Assembly: GCA_963796685.1 (NCBI GenBank)
Contig: CAWCMR010000003.1
Span: forward strand, 1 to 64,000
Direction of reading: 5' to 3'
Source: an uncultured delta proteobacterium
GTDB lineage: Bacteria; Myxococcota_A; Polyangia; Fen-1088
DNA: 64,000 bases
Shown here: positions 21,695 to 27,835 of the stretch, one piece after another
Layout of the letters: each line of letters opens with the position of its first letter
How positions within the stretch are numbered: the first letter of the stretch is position 1
Translations under genes and position numbers: made by a program
The notes under the pieces: generated by a model
What the model was told of the DNA's origin: nothing
Database searches by the model: none
Seen by the model: only the letters and a program-made list of their open reading frames with translations

Positions 21695-23243
21695 TGTTCA
21701 ACCAGCGACGGGCGCGGGAAAGGCCGGTGCAGGGCAACCCGTGATTTCGGCGGGCGGCGAGCCCCAGGTGACCGTGGAGCGCACGGTGCGGCCCATGCCC
21801 GACCGCTACCGCAACGCCCTCGGCAAATACAAGATTGGACGCTCGGCCGACTGCGTGGGCTGCGGCGACTGCGTCAAGCTGTGTCCCGAGGGCGTGCACG
21901 TCAAGCCCGACGGCTACACCTTTTCGCTGCGTCCGCGCGACCACCTCTGTATCGGGCCGGATTGCGCCAAGACCGAGCATTACTGCGTCGCCAAGTGCAC
22001 CAAGAAGGCGCTGTCTATAGCGCGCAACCCGACGGTGGACGCCATGGGCGATCCGCGCTGGACCTCGGATCTGATTCTCTCCACCTGGCACATGGCCGAA
22101 ACCGGGCACGCGCCGAAAGCGGGACTCGAGCACCGGGTGGGTGCCTCGGGCGGCGGGTTCGACCGCATCGGGTTCGACTTCCCTGCGGCGCCGCCCAAAG
22201 TCGATCCGGCGAAAGTCGACACCGGGCTCGATCTCAATCGGCGCAACGATGGCCGACCGCAGGTTCACATCGATCTGCCGGTGTACGGCGGTGGCATGTC
22301 ATTCGGCTCGGTCAGCATCCACACCATCCTGGCCAAGGCGCGCACCGCCGCCGCGTGGAACATCTTCACCTGCACCGGCGAGGGCGGCTACCACGACCGC
22401 TTGAAGCCCTACGACGACCACGTCATCACCCAGGTCGCCACCGGCCTGTTCGGCGTGCGCGAGGACACCATCCAGCGCGTGCGCATGGTCGAGTTCAAGT
22501 ACGCCCAGGGCGCCAAGCCCGGCCTCGGCGGCCACTTGCTCGGCGACAAGAACACCCCGGCGGTGGCGCGCATGCGCGAGGCCGTGGCGGGCAACGCCCT
22601 GTTCTCGCCCTTTCCGTTCCACAGCGTGTACAGCGTCGAGGATCACAAGAAGCACCTCGATTGGATCAAGGAGGTCAATCCCCGCGCCCTGGTCTCGGTG
22701 AAGGTGTCCACCCCGACGGACGTGGACATGGTCGCCGTGGGCAGCTACTACGCCGGCGCGCACATCATTCACCTCGACGGCAGCTATGGCGGCACAGGCG
22801 CCGCGCCCGACATCGCCAAGAAGAACATCGCCATGCCGCTCGAATACGCCATCGCCAAGGTGCACAAGTTCCTGGTCGCGGAAGGCATTCGCGATGGCGT
22901 CACCTTGATCGTCAGCGGCGGCGCGCGCACGGCCTGGGACGTGATGAAGGCCATCGCGCTCGGCGCCGACGGCGTGGTCATCGGTACCGCGGAAATGGTC
23001 GCCCTCGGTTGCGTGCGCTGCGCGTGCTGCGAGAGCGGTCGCGGCTGTCCGCGCGGCATCGCCAGCACCGACCCCGAACTGATGATGCTGATGAGCCTCG
23101 ACTGGGCCACGCAACGCTTGATCAACCTCATGTCGGCCTGGCGCGAGCAGATGGTCGAGATCCTGGTGAAGCTCGGTATCCCGAGCACGCGCGAGCTGCG
23201 TGGCCGCAGCGACGTCCTCACCTACGCCAAGGAGGCCGAGTGA
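21675..23243 (+). CDS. gltB: Glutamate synthase FMN-binding subunit (archaeal/split GltB2 type) with ferredoxin domain
   Basis: CVGCGDCVKLCP; GGMSFGSVS; TGEGG; QVATGLFGV; EFKYAQGAKPGLGGHL; CVRCACCESGRGCPRGIA. Confidence 0.88.
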   Translation: MTLPASSVQPATGAGKAGAGQPVISAGGEPQVTVERTVRPMPDRYRNALGKYKIGRSADCVGCGDCVKLCPEGVHVKPDGYTFSLRPRDHLCIGPDCAKTEHYCVAKCTKKALSIARNPTVDAMGDPRWTSDLILSTWHMAETGHAPKAGLEHRVGASGGGFDRIGFDFPAAPPKVDPAKVDTGLDLNRRNDGRPQVHIDLPVYGGGMSFGSVSIHTILAKARTAAAWNIFTCTGEGGYHDRLKPYDDHVITQVATGLFGVREDTIQRVRMVEFKYAQGAKPGLGGHLLGDKNTPAVARMREAVAGNALFSPFPFHSVYSVEDHKKHLDWIKEVNPRALVSVKVSTPTDVDMVAVGSYYAGAHIIHLDGSYGGTGAAPDIAKKNIAMPLEYAIAKVHKFLVAEGIRDGVTLIVSGGARTAWDVMKAIALGADGVVIGTAEMVALGCVRCACCESGRGCPRGIASTDPELMMLMSLDWATQRLINLMSAWREQMVEILVKLGIPSTRELRGRSDVLTYAKEAE

Positions 23244-26077
23244 TGCGCGACCTGCCGGAACAGGTTCTAGCGACTCGCAGCCAGGTGTATGAGGAGGGCG
23301 ATCGCGTTGGCGGAGCCGGGCTTTGCCCGGCGGAGCCAGAGCGCGGGAGGGCACGGGAACCCTCCGAGGGTTCCCGTGTAGATCGCGTTGGCGGAGCCGG
23401 GCTTTGCCCGGCGGAGCCAGAGCGCGGGAGGGCACGGGAACCCTCCGAGGGTTCCCGTGTAGATCGCGTTGGCGGAGCCGGGCTTTGCCCGGCGGAGCCA
23501 GAGCGCGGGAGGGCACGGGAACCCTCCGAGGGTTCCCGTGTAGAGGAGGGTGGCTGCGGCGTCACGGGGTTTGCTTGCAACATTCCCGTGCGCGGCAAGT
23601 TCATCCACGAGCCGTCCATTCAAATGCAGAACCGCGGCAACGGCAAGGGTGGCGGTATCGCGGCGGCGGGCCTGGTGCCCGAGCAGGTCGGGGTCTCGCG
23701 CGACGTGCTCGACTCGCACTACCTGCTGCAGATCGCGCTGTTGGATCCGTCGGCGGACAACGAGGTCGAGCAAAAGTTCGTGCTGCCGCATTTCGATGTC
23801 GCCCTGTCGACCAAGCAGGAGCACCTCGACGATCACCGCGACATTCCCGGCCTCGACGTGCGACCGCCCGACATTCACCGCTACGTCGTACGGGTCAAGC
23901 CCGCGGTGCTGAAGGCTTTCGGCGAATCGAATGGCCTCGGCAAGCTGTCTCCGCGCGACCTGGAAGACGAATTCGTGTGGCGTAATTCGTACCGCTTGAA
24001 CGACACCCTGTACGCCTCGCTCGGCGAGAAGCGAGCCTTCGTGCTGTCGCACGGCCGCGACCAACTGGTGTTCAAGCTGGTCGGCTACGCCGAGCAGAAC
24101 GTCGAGTACTACAAGCTCGAGGATTTCAAGGCCCACGTCTGGATCGCCCACCAGCGCTATCCGACGAAGGGGCGCGTGTGGCACCCCGGCGGTGCGCACC
24201 CGTTCGTGGGGATCAACGAGGCTCTGGTCCACAATGGCGACTTCGCCAACTACCACTCGGTCTGCGAATACCTGCGCCAACGCAACATCAAGCAGCAGTT
24301 CCTGACCGACACCGAGGTGTCGGCGCAGCTCTTCGATCTGTGGGATCGCGTCTACAAGTACCCGCTGGAATACATCATCGAGGCCCTGGCGCCCACCACC
24401 GAGCTGGACTTCGACCAGCTGCCCAAGGACAAGCAGCGCATCTACCGCGAGATCCAGGCCACCCACATCCACGCCTCGCCCGACGGGCCGTGGTTCTTCA
24501 TCATCGCGCGCAACCATCCCGATCTCCATCGCATGCAGCTCCTTGGCATCACGGACACGGCCATGCTGCGGCCGCAGGTGTTCGCGCTCTCGGACAGTGG
24601 CGACGTGCAGATCGGCCTTATTTGCTCGGAGAAGCAGGCCATCGACGCTACCTTGCGCGGACTGTCGCGCGAGGATCCGCGCTTCTCGCCCGTGGCCGAT
24701 CGCTACTGGAACGCGCGCGGCGGCAGCAGCAGCGACGGAGGCGCCTTCATCTTCACGGTGACGGGAGACGAGGGAAAGAAGAAGCTGACTTGCGCCGACA
24801 AGTTCGGCCGGCAGGTCAAGCTCGACATCGGCAAGGTCCGTTGCGATCAGCCGAAATCGGCGCCGCTGGTGGAGATCGTCTCGGCCGGCATCCGCAAGGC
24901 GATCGCCGAGTCGCTCAAGCAGGGCAGGGCGCACGATCTCTACACCCACGTGGTGCGGAGCCTCCCGGGATGGCCCGCCGCCGGTCTGCGCGAGCTGTGC
25001 GAGCAGATCGTCGCAGCGGCCGATAACGGCCGCGCCAAGGCCACCGCCATCGAGGCGCTGACCTTGCTCTACGACCGCCGCTACGACACCGGCGACAAGC
25101 GCCGCGCCACCGTCCTGCCCGTGCTCGAAGAGACGCTGATGCGCCTGTTCGACGCCACGCCACTCATCGGTGAGCCCGGAGAAGGCACGTTCCGACGGTT
25201 CCATTGGGACAGTCGGAACAACATCGAAGCGCCCAAGCCTGGCGAAGAGATCCTGGTCATCGACGCGGAGAAGTTTCCGCCCGAGGGTGACGACTGCGAT
25301 GCCGTGTACCTGCGCAAGGCCTATGAGGCCGGTTGGAAGCGCTTCATCGTGTACCGCCTGCGCGGTCAGCGCTTCACCGGCGTCGGCCTTGGCCCGAGCA
25401 CCCACGGCGTGCGCATCGACACCTACGGGTCGAGCGGCGACTACCTGGCGAGTGGCATGGACGGCGAGGAGATCTATGTCCACGGCAATGCCCAGGATCA
25501 GGTCGGCCAGATCGCCAAGCAGGGCAAGCTGGTCATCTACGGCGACGTGGGTCAGACCTTCATGTACGGCGCCAAGGGCGGCGACGTCTTCATCATGGGC
25601 AATGGCGCGGGCCGGCCGCTCATCAATGCCGTCGGTCGTCCGCGCGTGGTCATCAACGGCACCTGCCTCGACTTTCTTGCCGAGTCGTTCATGGCCGGCG
25701 ATCCGCTCAATGGCGGCGGATTCGTCATCCTGAACGGGGTGGAATTCGACGGCCACGCCAAGCTGGTGCCGCTGGCCTCGCCCTACCCGGGCAGCAACCT
25801 GTTCTCGCTCGCCTCGGGCGGCGCCATCTATGTGCGCGACCCGGACAAGAAGGTGGTCGAACAGCAATTGAACGGCGGCGTGTTCGCGGCCTTCACGGGC
25901 GCCGACTGGCGCCTGATTCGAGCCTACTTGGAAGAGAACGAGCGCTTGTTCGGCATCAACGTGCAGGACCTACTGACCGTGAACGGCAAGTTGTGCGAGC
26001 CCGAGCAGGTGTATCGCAAAGTCAGCGCGCAGGCGCTGGCGGTGCTGGCGGCCGCGACCAAGGAGTCGAAGAAATGA
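23243..26077 (+). CDS. Glutamate synthase amidotransferase (class II Ntn) + GXGXG domain fusion (GltB1/GltB3)
   Basis: TGATG overlap; EEGG-CGV nucleophile Cys at 23555; HQRYPT; HPF; HNGD; TDTE; C-terminal GSSGDYLASGMDG...GDVGQTFMYGAKGG beta-helix. Confidence 0.88.
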   Translation: MRDLPEQVLATRSQVYEEGDRVGGAGLCPAEPERGRAREPSEGSRVDRVGGAGLCPAEPERGRAREPSEGSRVDRVGGAGLCPAEPERGRAREPSEGSRVEEGGCGVTGFACNIPVRGKFIHEPSIQMQNRGNGKGGGIAAAGLVPEQVGVSRDVLDSHYLLQIALLDPSADNEVEQKFVLPHFDVALSTKQEHLDDHRDIPGLDVRPPDIHRYVVRVKPAVLKAFGESNGLGKLSPRDLEDEFVWRNSYRLNDTLYASLGEKRAFVLSHGRDQLVFKLVGYAEQNVEYYKLEDFKAHVWIAHQRYPTKGRVWHPGGAHPFVGINEALVHNGDFANYHSVCEYLRQRNIKQQFLTDTEVSAQLFDLWDRVYKYPLEYIIEALAPTTELDFDQLPKDKQRIYREIQATHIHASPDGPWFFIIARNHPDLHRMQLLGITDTAMLRPQVFALSDSGDVQIGLICSEKQAIDATLRGLSREDPRFSPVADRYWNARGGSSSDGGAFIFTVTGDEGKKKLTCADKFGRQVKLDIGKVRCDQPKSAPLVEIVSAGIRKAIAESLKQGRAHDLYTHVVRSLPGWPAAGLRELCEQIVAAADNGRAKATAIEALTLLYDRRYDTGDKRRATVLPVLEETLMRLFDATPLIGEPGEGTFRRFHWDSRNNIEAPKPGEEILVIDAEKFPPEGDDCDAVYLRKAYEAGWKRFIVYRLRGQRFTGVGLGPSTHGVRIDTYGSSGDYLASGMDGEEIYVHGNAQDQVGQIAKQGKLVIYGDVGQTFMYGAKGGDVFIMGNGAGRPLINAVGRPRVVINGTCLDFLAESFMAGDPLNGGGFVILNGVEFDGHAKLVPLASPYPGSNLFSLASGGAIYVRDPDKKVVEQQLNGGVFAAFTGADWRLIRAYLEENERLFGINVQDLLTVNGKLCEPEQVYRKVSAQALAVLAAATKESKK
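23300..23542 (+). repeat. Three identical tandem 81-bp palindromic units inside the CDS
   Basis: Units start at 23300, 23381 and 23462. Each has hairpins GCCGGGC-TTT-GCCCGGC and CACGGGAACCCT-CCG-AGGGTTCCCGTG. GAGGAGGG flanks both sides. Confidence 0.95.
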
Positions 26078-26640
26078 CCATGACCCTGGCAGCAGGCGAA
26101 ATGTCCGGGGACTTCGCTGCGCAAGTCGAAGCTGAAAGCCACGCCAATTTGATGGCGTGCCTGCAGTGCAAGAAGTGCACTTCGGGTTGCCCGGTGGCCG
26201 CGGTTGCCGACGTCAAGCCGCACGAAATGGTGCGCATGGTGCAGTTCGGTCAGCGCGACGAAGTGCTGACGAGCAAGATGCTCTGGCAGTGTACCTCGTG
26301 CCAGACCTGCGCCACCCGCTGCCCGCAGAAGGTCAGCGTGGCCGCGCTCAACGACGGCCTGCGCCGCATGAGCGCCCGGGCCAAGGCGCGCAGCAAGGGC
26401 GCGGTCCCGACCTTCAACAGGATCTTCATGAAGGCGGTGCGCGAGCGCGGGCGCATGAACGAAGCGGGCCTCATGGCCTCGTTCAAGCTGCGCACCGGTC
26501 GGCTGTTCGAGGACATGGGCAAGCTGCCCATGATGCTCCTCAAGGGCAAGATGCCGCTGTGGCAGGCGGCGTCGCCGGGCCGCGGCGAGCGCGAGGCGAT
26601 GTTCGACCGCGCGGCCAAAGCGAAGGGCAGCAAGTCATGA
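26074..26640 (+). CDS. hdrC: Heterodisulfide reductase subunit C-like
   Basis: CLQCKKCTSGCP and LWQCTSCQTCATRCP; ATGA overlap with the upstream gene. Confidence 0.9.
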   Translation: MTMTLAAGEMSGDFAAQVEAESHANLMACLQCKKCTSGCPVAAVADVKPHEMVRMVQFGQRDEVLTSKMLWQCTSCQTCATRCPQKVSVAALNDGLRRMSARAKARSKGAVPTFNRIFMKAVRERGRMNEAGLMASFKLRTGRLFEDMGKLPMMLLKGKMPLWQAASPGRGEREAMFDRAAKAKGSKS

Positions 26641-26972
26641 CCGCCCGGAGTTTTTTCACCACAGAGGGCACAGAGAGCACAGAGACGGACCGGAGGGAAA
26701 GAAATGGTCGAATCCGGATCCGGATCCGGAGAACCCATCCCCTTCCGGCCTCTGTTGACCTGTCCATGAATTGGACAGGTCGACGGAAGCCGAGCCAAAG
26801 GCTCGGCCGCAGGTGGGGTGAAGTCCGCGAATTCACTTCGCGGACGAGGGGCGGGCCGCGGCCCGCCCCTTTGAAATCTTCAAGACGGGTCCATTTATGG
26901 ACACGTCTTGTGTCCTCTGTGCTCTCTGTGGTTCATCATCCGGATCGCACCACGAAAGGCGGTGCTTCGTGA
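26637..26972 (+). CDS. Possible 111-aa translational-coupling ORF spanning the hdrC-hdrB insertion
   Basis: Its ATG overlaps the hdrC stop (ATGA 26637-26640) and its TGA overlaps the hdrB start (GTGA 26969-26972); no recognisable domain. Confidence 0.3.
   Translation: MTARSFFTTEGTESTETDRRERNGRIRIRIRRTHPLPASVDLSMNWTGRRKPSQRLGRRWGEVREFTSRTRGGPRPAPLKSSRRVHLWTRLVSSVLSVVHHPDRTTKGGAS
26658..26932. mobile_element. MITE-like/structured element with CACAGAG-type terminal inverted repeats and six internal palindromes
   Basis: Left end ACCACAGAGGGCACAGAG matches the reverse complement of the right end, ACCACAGAGAGCACAGAG (17/18). Stems at 26713-30, 26757-81, 26789-807, 26823-45, 26847-70 and 26881-910. 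Confidence 0.7.
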
Positions 26973-27835
26973 GCTACGCGTTCTTCCCGGGTTGTAGTAT
27001 GGAAGGCACGGCGCACGACTATCAGAAGTCGACGGTGGCGGTGAGCAAGGTGCTGGGGCTGGAATTGCCCGAGATTCCCGGGTGGACTTGTTGCGGCTCG
27101 ACCTCGGCACACCAGACGGACCACCTGTTGTCGCTGGCTCTGCCGGCCAAGAACCTGGTCGCCGCCGAGGGCAAGCCCGTGGCCGTGGGGTGCGCCGCCT
27201 GTTACAGCCGCCTGAAGACCGCCAACTACGAAATCGCCAACGACGAGCAAACGCGCAAGTCCGTGGCCGGCGTCGTCGGCAAGGACTACGACGGCAAGAC
27301 CGAGATCCTGCACCTGCTCGAGATCCTGGCCCGCGACGTCGGCATGAAGAAGATTGCCGAGGCGACGAAGAAGCCGCTCAAGGGACTCAAGCTGGTCACC
27401 TACTACGGCTGCCTGCTCTCGCGACCGCCCGAGGTTACCAAGTTCGACGACCCGGAAAACCCGACGCTGATGGATCAGGTGCTGGAGGCCGCGGGCGCGA
27501 CCATCCTCGAATGGCCGCACAAGACCGAGTGCTGCGGCGCCGGGTATTCGATCACCGACGTCACCATCGTCAAGAAGCTCACGCGCGAAATCCTGGCCAT
27601 GGCCAAGGCCGCCGGTGCCGACTGCATCGCGACGGCGTGTCCGCTGTGCCAGCTCAATCTCGATTTGCGCCAGAAGGATACGGAAGAGGCATCCGGCGAA
27701 CGGTTCAACCTGCCGGTGTTCTATTTCACGCAGTTGCTGGGCCTGGCCTTCGGCCTTTCCCGCAAAGAATTGGGCCTGCGCAGCCTGGTGGTCAGCCCCA
27801 AGAAGCTCTTGGCCGACCGTGGAATTGGTGTTTGA
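26969..27835 (+). CDS. hdrB: Heterodisulfide reductase subunit B-like (two CCG domains)
   Basis: FFPGC...WTCCGS...CAACY and YYGC...ECCGAG...ACPLCQLNL; GTG start. Confidence 0.92.
   Translation: MSYAFFPGCSMEGTAHDYQKSTVAVSKVLGLELPEIPGWTCCGSTSAHQTDHLLSLALPAKNLVAAEGKPVAVGCAACYSRLKTANYEIANDEQTRKSVAGVVGKDYDGKTEILHLLEILARDVGMKKIAEATKKPLKGLKLVTYYGCLLSRPPEVTKFDDPENPTLMDQVLEAAGATILEWPHKTECCGAGYSITDVTIVKKLTREILAMAKAAGADCIATACPLCQLNLDLRQKDTEEASGERFNLPVFYFTQLLGLAFGLSRKELGLRSLVVSPKKLLADRGIGV

Follow-up and report, generated by a model that had tools for sequence, protein, structure and literature searches.

The spacer between two hdr-like genes

The 64,000-nucleotide stretch of DNA analysed here (the window; contig CAWCMR010000003.1 of assembly GCA_963796685.1) comes from an uncultured delta proteobacterium and holds, between an hdrC-like and an hdrB-like gene, a spacer (26640-26969) densely filled with palindromes. 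We consider it highly probable (roughly 0.87) that this hdrC-hdrB cassette consists of two nested non-autonomous mobile repeats, that is, of selfish DNA: an outer, gene-less hairpin element of the CACAGAG family, extending from about 26645 to 26946, is interrupted by an inner, hairpin-ended element of 153 bp (26756..26908). Nothing about the cassette calls for a special function, and to take it for a riboswitch or for a stoichiometry device of engineered kind would be a mistake. The assembly is a metagenome-derived draft of 26 contigs, 88.6% complete and 6.5% contaminated.

Both flanking genes lie on the plus strand. The upstream gene, of which the 3' part is placed at 26098..26640, encodes Fer4 dicluster domains and ends with a TGA stop codon at 26638-26640; its start is uncertain, and the C-terminus of its product aligns to those of the orthologs. 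The downstream gene (26969..27835) encodes two CCG domains and begins with a GTG codon at 26969, giving the N-terminus VSYAFFPGCS; the orthologs start at the same residue. The genes had been labelled hdrC and hdrB in the original prediction, made from the sequence of the window. Their domains and family likeness agree with these labels, but HdrC models match the upstream gene below the NCBIfam equivalog cut-off, as does TIGR03288 the downstream gene (205 bits), and we therefore use the names hdrC-like and hdrB-like only.

The six palindromes and the terminal inverted repeat that had been described in the spacer were each found again. The terminal repeat (26658-26681 and 26909-26932) is 24 nt long with 88% identity, and a shift of the register by 9 nt brings 16 nt (26669-84 and 26915-30) into perfect pairing. 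The palindromes comprise (TCCGGA)x3 at 26713-26730, stems at 26757-81, 26789-807 and 26823-45, a perfect palindrome of 24 bp at 26847-70 and an interrupted stem at 26881-910. As RNA, positions 26640-26950 have a minimum free energy of -184.2 kcal/mol, far beyond that of 100 dinucleotide shuffles (-117.9 +/- 5.7; z = -11.6; none equal), and the inner 156 nt by itself reaches -94.3 against -56.8 +/- 4.1 for its shuffles (z = -9.1). The excess of folding is thus real, and the inverted repeats and the hairpins both recur genome-wide, contrary to the outcome that had been named as a refutation. The supposition that the hairpins share no sequence was mistaken: within the inner part, the first hairpin and the last one both contain GACnnGTCCAT..ATGGACnnGTC (families D3, D6 and I4), and this likeness marks them as the two ends of one element.

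The inner element

The inner element is composed of a left terminal hairpin (26757-26781), a three-hairpin module of 87 bp (26786-26872) and a right terminal hairpin (26884-26907). Its ends, themselves hairpins, also form terminal inverted repeats: when TGACCTGTCCATGAAT is compared with the right end in reverse complement, AGACGTGTCCATAAAT, 13 of 16 positions agree. It is bounded on both sides by the triplet TGT (26753..26755 and 26909..26911), read as the two copies of a target-site duplication on the basis of an empty site in the closest relative and of the covariation of the triplets among copies. Small and non-coding, the element occurs at about 10 loci in the genome, with identities of 98–99% at C6:108166, C6:243485 and C8:62390, 94% at C13:517098 and 90% at C9:209228, besides partial copies elsewhere and solo hairpins with the same bounding triplets at C5:184761 and C25:1388364. 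The flanking triplets are identical in six of the seven full copies (TGT/TGT four times, TGA/TGA twice, TGT/TGC once). Matches were found in 10 of 31 related genomes, all of one family; one of these genomes, G004, has at least 28, and all 20 copies fetched from it have the same ends and read C-TGA-element-TGA-G. The target inferred from these copies is CTG(A/T)G, with a 3-bp duplication.

Four of the seven full copies sit in a CTCTG^TGTCC context with flanks that differ each time; two of these sites belong to elements detected by the profile of the outer family described below, and two are arm-like relics judged by eye. Because the word CTCTGTG holds CTGTG, a CTG(A/T)G target, the inner element nests in CACAGAG arms, which are its natural landing pads. 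Nesting can therefore be put down to a simple rule, the 5-nt target of the invader being part of the arm word. The original prediction had offered, among other readings, a single MITE (miniature transposable element with inverted repeats) that collects units resembling repetitive extragenic palindromic (REP) sequences. The DNA does appear mobile and its inner part is MITE-like, but there are two nested elements in place of one, and the five right-hand palindromes, far from having been collected separately, recur as one 153-bp unit (98–99% identity). By its ends, its 3-bp duplication and its copy number the inner element fits well an ordinary MITE for which no parent insertion sequence was found.

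Together with the duplication the inner element adds 156 bp, or 52 codons, and one frame is open on each strand. At C23:1800-2389 its 87-bp core (29 codons) is repeated six times in tandem between both terminal hairpins, and the sister genome G002 has an array of at least six units of this core at C3:192933-193521. At the hdrC-hdrB locus the element supplies an ATG at 26897 in frame with hdrB, so that an open reading frame (ORF) finder adds 24 codons to that gene (MDTSCVLCALCGSSSGSHHERRCF; 26897-26968); no ribosome-binding site precedes this ATG, which is therefore probably an unused start.

Empty, singly filled and doubly filled junctions

Orthologs of the hdrB-like gene were located in nine congeners, and the state of each junction was read from the sequences. 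In six of the nine, the hdrC stop and the hdrB start overlap by 4 nt, as GTGA (..TCGTGAGCTAC..) in G001, G004, G006, G011 and G012 and as ATGA (..CAATGACG..) in G003, where extra in-frame hdrC codons lie further upstream. The other three (G002, G010 and G005) have the outer hairpin alone, uninterrupted, within a spacer of 157–178 nt. Only the genome under study has both the outer hairpin and the inner element, with a spacer of 328 nt. Its HdrB protein is 94–95% identical to those of the filled-site genomes, 95% identical to that of G003 over the 118 residues of a partial match, and 81–91% identical to those of the other five empty-site genomes. The right-hand join ATCCGGATCnCAnCACGAAAGG is common to all four filled junctions, the simplest reading of which is one insertion event. 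That six of nine orthologous junctions are without the insert speaks against a regulatory role of ancestral date.

For the inner element, the empty site is preserved in the closest relative, G002, as CCTCTGTGTCC. There the right arm reads CCTCTGTGTCCTCTGTGCTCTCTGTGG, against CCTC-TGT-(153 bp)-TGT-GTCCTCTGTGCTCTCTGTGG here, which amounts to an exact empty site and a 3-bp duplication. The locus thereby provides one site in three clean states (empty, filled once, filled twice), a basis for studying the movement of the elements. It also makes a misassembly scarcely credible. A draft genome and a region made up wholly of repeats are the circumstances in which repeats could be wrongly joined during metagenome assembly, but both flanks are the expected neighbour genes, the outer element stands at the same place with the same junction in three independent assemblies, and the inner element cleanly interrupts one word with an exact 3-bp duplication at its borders.

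These comparisons show a succession of states. The ancestral junction was a 4-nt overlap, GTGA, between the stop codon of hdrC and the start codon of hdrB. A gene-less CACAGAG hairpin of about 120 bp, its arms built of CACAGAGnn words in 9-nt steps, then entered this junction in an ancestor shared with the three sister species. Later, in the genome under study only, the 153-bp element entered the right arm at its innermost word, CTCTG^TG, with duplication of TGT.

How a pair of overlapping genes could have received such an insertion is suggested by the sequence that follows the hairpin. In all four filled junctions a tail of about 22 nt, similar to the final ~20 nt of hdrC, carries GAAAGG 6–9 nt ahead of the start codon; here it occupies 26947..26968 on the plus strand and provides a Shine-Dalgarno sequence for hdrB at 26954-26959. 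Neither gene was disrupted, since the element is followed by some 20 nt of the old junction that include its ribosome-binding site and its start codon, and the tail is probably a duplicate of that junction. Only an event that duplicated the junction could presumably have survived. Other copies of the family are without a long flanking duplication, so duplication of the tail is not a family trait.

One further insertion was noticed among these junctions. The extra in-frame codons at the hdrC 3' end of G003 (L010) place G/C-rich hairpin sequence (CCCCGCTTGGCGGGG) in the HdrC C-terminus and are another small repeat inserted in frame.

The outer hairpin and its family

The left portion of the outer element (26645..26755) includes the left arm, (CACAGAGnn)x3 at 26660-26684 with words starting at 26660, 26669 and 26678, then the central (TCCGGA)x3 palindrome and the first right-arm word, CTCTGT, at 26750-26755. 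The right portion (26912..26946), identical in the G002 ortholog, contributes two CTCTGTG words (26915-26921 and 26924-26930) as well as the outer inverted repeat GTTCATCATCCGGATC, so that the right arm consists of two words and one interrupted word. With these arms the element fits a class of hairpins bounded by inverted arrays of CRCnRAR heptamers with a step of about 9 nt.

Such hairpins are abundant in the genome, where CACAGAG and its complement form 344 clusters, 82 of them with at least two words, arranged in inverted pairs. Most pairs span about 107 bp on a common plan, TTCAC-(CACAGAGnn)x1-6 .. GGAAGGGTTCGGATC..GATCCGAACCCTTCC .. (nnCTCTGTG)xN-GTGAA. An nhmmer profile built from 38 copies gave 144 matches that resolve into 71 loci, of which 57 reach 95 bp or more, scattered genome-wide in both orientations and, judged by eye, extragenic. 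At hdrC-hdrB the profile matches 26649-26755 (E = 5e-18) and ends mid-word in CTCTGTG. The inverted-array pattern is present in 11 of the 31 related genomes and a reversed-pattern control in none. At C25:897698 the intergenic flanks of relatives are too diverged to show a target duplication; at C25:1645632 four of five relatives have the element and the fifth a shorter stretch.

This distribution speaks against a dedicated structured non-coding RNA, such as a riboswitch, small RNA or attenuator, as the content of the spacer. The extreme folding z-scores and the position inside an operon are what such an RNA would display. Both halves of the cassette are, however, multicopy repeats found genome-wide in either orientation; the interiors of the family in other phyla are unrelated, the arm words alone being kept; the spacer is missing at six of nine orthologous junctions; and an Rfam search of 26000-27500 returned 15 matches (E up to 10), each falling well short of the gathering threshold, the best being microRNA models with at most 23 bits against cut-offs of 60–100. 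A dedicated RNA function of the spacer is thus unlikely, and as an account of the whole cassette it is largely refuted and retains very little probability.

Two variants of the outer family deserve mention. In a subfamily of about 265 bp (C25:1368095-1368361 and about 15 other loci) the CACAGAG hairpin is set within conserved flanks, CTAGAGCACCGAACGG..TTTCCGGATTCTAAC on one side and GTGAAAAA..GGCTTGTGCGCGCTCTGCAC on the other, with no coding capacity seen. G026, from a different family of the same class and 91% complete, has 57 inverted CACAGAG array matches with no PF13366 gene detected; either its hairpins are orphaned or the gene is unassembled.

A small nuclease gene between the same arms

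The original prediction had stated that CACAGAG-type repeats often flank small genes of the GxxExxY and four-helix-bundle kinds, and for GxxExxY this statement is borne out. The only full-length PF13366/TIGR04256 (GxxExxY) gene in the genome (C25:838674-839021) lies exactly between six CACAGAG and three CTCTGTG words and adjoins a ComM-like Mg-chelatase gene on one side and recA on the other. The same recA-upstream cassette is present in six congeners (G002, G003, G004, G005, G006 and G010), the ComM-like/recA synteny extending over seven genomes, and at six of these seven loci the hidden Markov model of the gene-less family matches the flanks of the cassette as a left half and a right half. 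A gene-less profile that matches both flanks implies that the gene-less hairpins are the cassette arms joined.

The association extends beyond the genus. An automatic detector of inverted tandem heptamers with a step of 8–10 nt was positive at 22 of 29 GxxExxY loci across phyla, compared with 1 of 107 shifted controls, and reported the word types CACAGAG, CGCAGAG, CACGAAG/A, CGCAAAG, CGCAGAT, CACCAAG and CGCGGAG. The four-helix-bundle half of the statement fared differently: at loci of the 23S_rRNA_IVP family the detector was positive in 0 of 29, in a test that covered heptamer arrays. A cross-phylum scan for (CACAGAGnn)x3, with one genome per species, yielded at least 124 stretches in Proteobacteria, Acidobacteriota, Planctomycetota, Chloroflexota, Bacteroidota, Cyanobacteria, Firmicutes and others. 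Among the matches listed (80 loci), 48 have an inverted partner within 200 bp; their lengths are 54–214 bp and their interiors unrelated. PF13366 genes occur in 33 of 40 array-bearing genomes, which were chosen by their arrays, and in 0 of 14 control genomes.

GxxExxY proteins are 37–63% identical across phyla, and seven residues (G18, G20, E23, Y26, D63, E73 and K75) are invariant in 28 of 28. The structure model has a predicted local distance difference score (pLDDT) of 97 and VIA-align relates it mainly to restriction-endonuclease-like folds, with middling Z-scores up to 7.7; no PDB sequence match was found, and Foldseek returned nothing at E <=0.001. With D63, E73 and K75 invariant and such a predicted fold, the nuclease looks active.

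In the literature searched, which took in neither subscription journals nor the family comments of databases, we found no description of GxxExxY genes with arms of heptamer arrays. Of the array 16-mers sought in the literature, only a Bacteroides fragilis PCR primer matched: in the methods of PMC3090145, a primer upstream of BF2782 ends in CTCTGTGTTCTCTGTGGTG. The primer end reads as an arm plus terminus like that at hdrC-hdrB, which would place an element of the CACAGAG class beside an invertible capsule promoter region. Within the literature searched, the outer family therefore appears to be an undescribed, widespread repeat tied to a small nuclease gene.

On this basis the outer family may consist of gene-less derivatives of a cassette that holds a GxxExxY nuclease of the PD-(D/E)XK type between the same arms, and the nuclease would probably multiply or maintain the hairpins. 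More broadly, and more tentatively, CACAGAG hairpins and GxxExxY genes could form an enzyme-plus-repeat system across many phyla for which no description was found, in which a restriction-endonuclease-fold protein would read phased heptamer arrays; the hdrC-hdrB locus would then be a rare dated before-and-after case of it, and cleavage by RNase III would make the hairpin an mRNA 'intervening sequence'. We put the chance of this wider proposal somewhat below even. At the least, a genus-wide population of gene-less hairpins is tied to one conserved GxxExxY nuclease gene next to recA, and through a repeat-enzyme association the 'hypothetical' PD-(D/E)XK proteins, a large family, would acquire a function.

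Amplified and fragmentary forms of these genes were also seen. In G004 there are about 40 GxxExxY gene copies, each with arms of a related word, GGAACrGnG (loci L043, L048 and L051-L068). Nearly all that were inspected are nested in a larger element with the ends GGGTGCyTCCCTGAAA, and the three checked closely (L052, L053 and L062) have a 9-bp target duplication at their flanks; the nuclease cassette there has been amplified by hitch-hiking in another transposon-like element. In the genome under study, a 23S_rRNA_IVP gene at C5:241085-241399 lies between inverted runs of GGCCACGG-type words, and GxxExxY gene fragments at C25:1266996 and C13:521578 are flanked by inverted GGAAGCCAG-type 9-mers, differing word types within one genome.

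Evidence weighed against mobility and the nuclease link

Several results count against the interpretation given above, either in its mobile-repeat part or in the part that concerns the nuclease. A target duplication is not seen in the outer family: direct repeats with a score of 9 or more flank 3 of 46 cases and 3 of 133 mismatched-flank controls, and no duplication is visible in 41 hairpins of other phyla, where the inverted repeat extends just 2–5 nt beyond the arrays. In this the family is unlike a classical MITE. No longer element bounded by the inner-element ends was found in the 88.6%-complete genome, relatives being outside that search, and searches of the genome with PF01797 (Y1_Tnp) and PF07282 (TnpB) gave no matches, their controls being positive in 6 of 14 and 8 of 14 genomes. 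The likeness of the tail to the 3' end of hdrC is significant in one of four genomes: in G010 it is equalled by about 0.0005 of shuffles, in each of the others by about 0.1. Pairing of the outer hairpin is kept in the four species, where 251 of 268 cells are paired and, in 6 of 67 pairs, both partners have changed; this may fit structural selection, exchange between copies or alignment slack of the tandem words. The link between nuclease and hairpins is correlation only, among kin that are not independent: eight of the 31 relatives have arrays and the gene and 18 have neither, while arrays alone occur in three (4 matches in G001, 2 in G011, 57 in G026) and the gene alone in two. Finally, for 31 arrays of other phyla without a partner within 200 bp, 0 of 76 ORF pieces match PF13366 or PF05635, the pieces being 40–66 aa long and the sensitivity low.

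The two empty transposase searches bear equally on a different origin of the inner element, as a palindrome-associated element derived from IS200/IS605 or as a REP or bacterial interspersed mosaic element unit moved by a Y1 transposase of the REP-associated tyrosine transposase (RAYT) kind. Its subterminal imperfect hairpins of similar sequence at both ends, the solo hairpins elsewhere and the mosaic build with a repeatable inner module would suit such an origin. Besides the zero matches to PF01797 and PF07282, the 3-bp target duplication stands against it. IS200/IS605 elements are not known to make a target duplication, and given this trait an IS200/IS605-type origin is excluded; for the alternative as a whole we see little likelihood.

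The kept pairing, for its part, can be taken as a sign that an element of mobile origin has been exapted for mRNA processing or stability, RNase III now cutting the stem, separating the hdrC and hdrB messages and setting their ratio. The outer hairpin persists at the site in four species, each of which retains a Shine-Dalgarno sequence shortly downstream of it. Precedents, as reported in the accounts cited, are the transcripts of Correia elements, cut by RNase III at inverted repeats (PMC10969869), and the intervening sequences of 23S rRNA, excised by RNase III at the terminal stem (PMC4990558). Against exaptation, the two genes are joined by a 4-nt overlap, without any spacer, in six of nine congeners; the inner 153 bp is missing at the site of the closest relative and so is no part of a conserved device; and a scan of 25900-27300 detected promoter-like sites on neither strand and, on the plus strand, no terminator-like site. 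Among the sequencing runs searched, none contained half or more of the sampled words (best share 0.28 for DNA, 0.05 in the two RNA runs), and four runs matched the region only as short contig pieces on the repeats, with foreign flanks and none across the junction. Exaptation would be compatible with the mobile origin that we favour, and we judge it a minority possibility.

Expected effect on the operon

Whether exapted or selfish, the nested mobile repeats would alter the transcript that they share with the two genes. A 4-nt stop/start overlap is the usual arrangement for translational coupling. The insert would break this coupling and add some 300 nt of nearly fully paired mRNA spacer: a terminal stem of about 25 bp that encloses about 250 nt of hairpins should end translational coupling. 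The same stem would be a plausible substrate of RNase III, cleavage by which would be the likeliest effect on the mRNA. A coupled pair with a GTGA overlap can evidently tolerate an almost fully paired spacer of about 330 nt if the ribosome-binding site is regenerated.

Comparison with known repeat systems

In its mode of working the outer element, with mobility inferred, most resembles the combination of REPINs, REP doublets that form hairpins, with a RAYT gene, as outlined by Bertels & Rainey (2011, PMC3116915). As far as that account goes, the two systems have in common tens of short extragenic hairpins made from inverted repeat words (extragenic by eye in the CACAGAG family), a single gene that lies, in conserved synteny, between copies of these words (GxxExxY, ComM-like/recA, 7 genomes) and a tendency of hairpin abundance to accompany presence of the gene; the proposed role of the nuclease would parallel that of RAYT genes for REPINs. 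Yet the CACAGAG system fails the defining test of a RAYT gene. Its enzyme candidate is a PD-(D/E)XK GxxExxY protein of about 120 aa and not a Y1 HUH transposase (PF01797, 0 matches), and its arms are tandem arrays of 1–6 heptamers with a 9-nt step, not a single REP palindrome.

The intervening sequences of 23S rRNA in Coxiella, Leptospira and Salmonella are described in PMC4990558 as selfish stem-loops with complementary ends, sometimes with a small ORF in the loop, whose terminal stem is cut by RNase III; that of Coxiella has tandem GACAGAT heptamers in variable number next to an ORF. The outer element is likewise a stem-loop with complementary ends within a transcribed unit, the likeness of its heptamer to that of Coxiella being only a resemblance. 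It differs from them, to the extent that they are described there, in lying between protein-coding genes and not in helix 25 or 45 of 23S rRNA, and the ORF family of intervening sequences, 23S_rRNA_IVP, is the one without heptamer arrays at its 29 loci.

Correia elements of Neisseria are, according to the description in PMC10969869, co-transcribed with neighbouring genes. Like these and other bacterial MITEs as described, both elements studied here are small, gene-less and multicopy with inverted-repeat ends, and the inner element fits the MITE definition save that no parent insertion sequence was found for it. The outer element departs further, having no target duplication and a gene-bearing form that holds a nuclease-fold gene and no known transposase. 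The palindromic elements of Rickettsia, treated in the same source, share with the inner element, as far as they are described, a length in multiples of codons (156 bp and 87 bp here) and an open frame on each strand; the copy at hdrC-hdrB differs in being intergenic.

The nesting itself has a parallel. Some insertion sequences target REPs, among them IS1397 and ISKpn1 in enterobacterial REPs and IS110-type elements in Pseudomonas REPs. There, as here, one mobile element uses another repeat family as preferred target, but the invader of the CACAGAG arms is a non-autonomous element of 153 bp, and the 5-nt word CTG(A/T)G, not recognition of a hairpin, explains its specificity.

A third repeat in the window

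A tandem array at 23300-23544 consists of exactly 3.0 repeats of an 81-bp unit, in frame and stop-free within the open frame 21881-26077. The original prediction had likened the first hairpin of this unit to the stem at 26789; the local alignment score is 9, against a shuffle mean of 11.3, and is not above chance. Kinship between the 81-bp unit and the 87-bp module of the inner element was considered too and rejected, the likeness being no better than chance. To judge from these comparisons the unit would represent a third repeat family, unrelated to the outer and inner elements. It has more than 100 matches genome-wide and forms tandem arrays of up to 8 units, as at C25:2111418-2112051.

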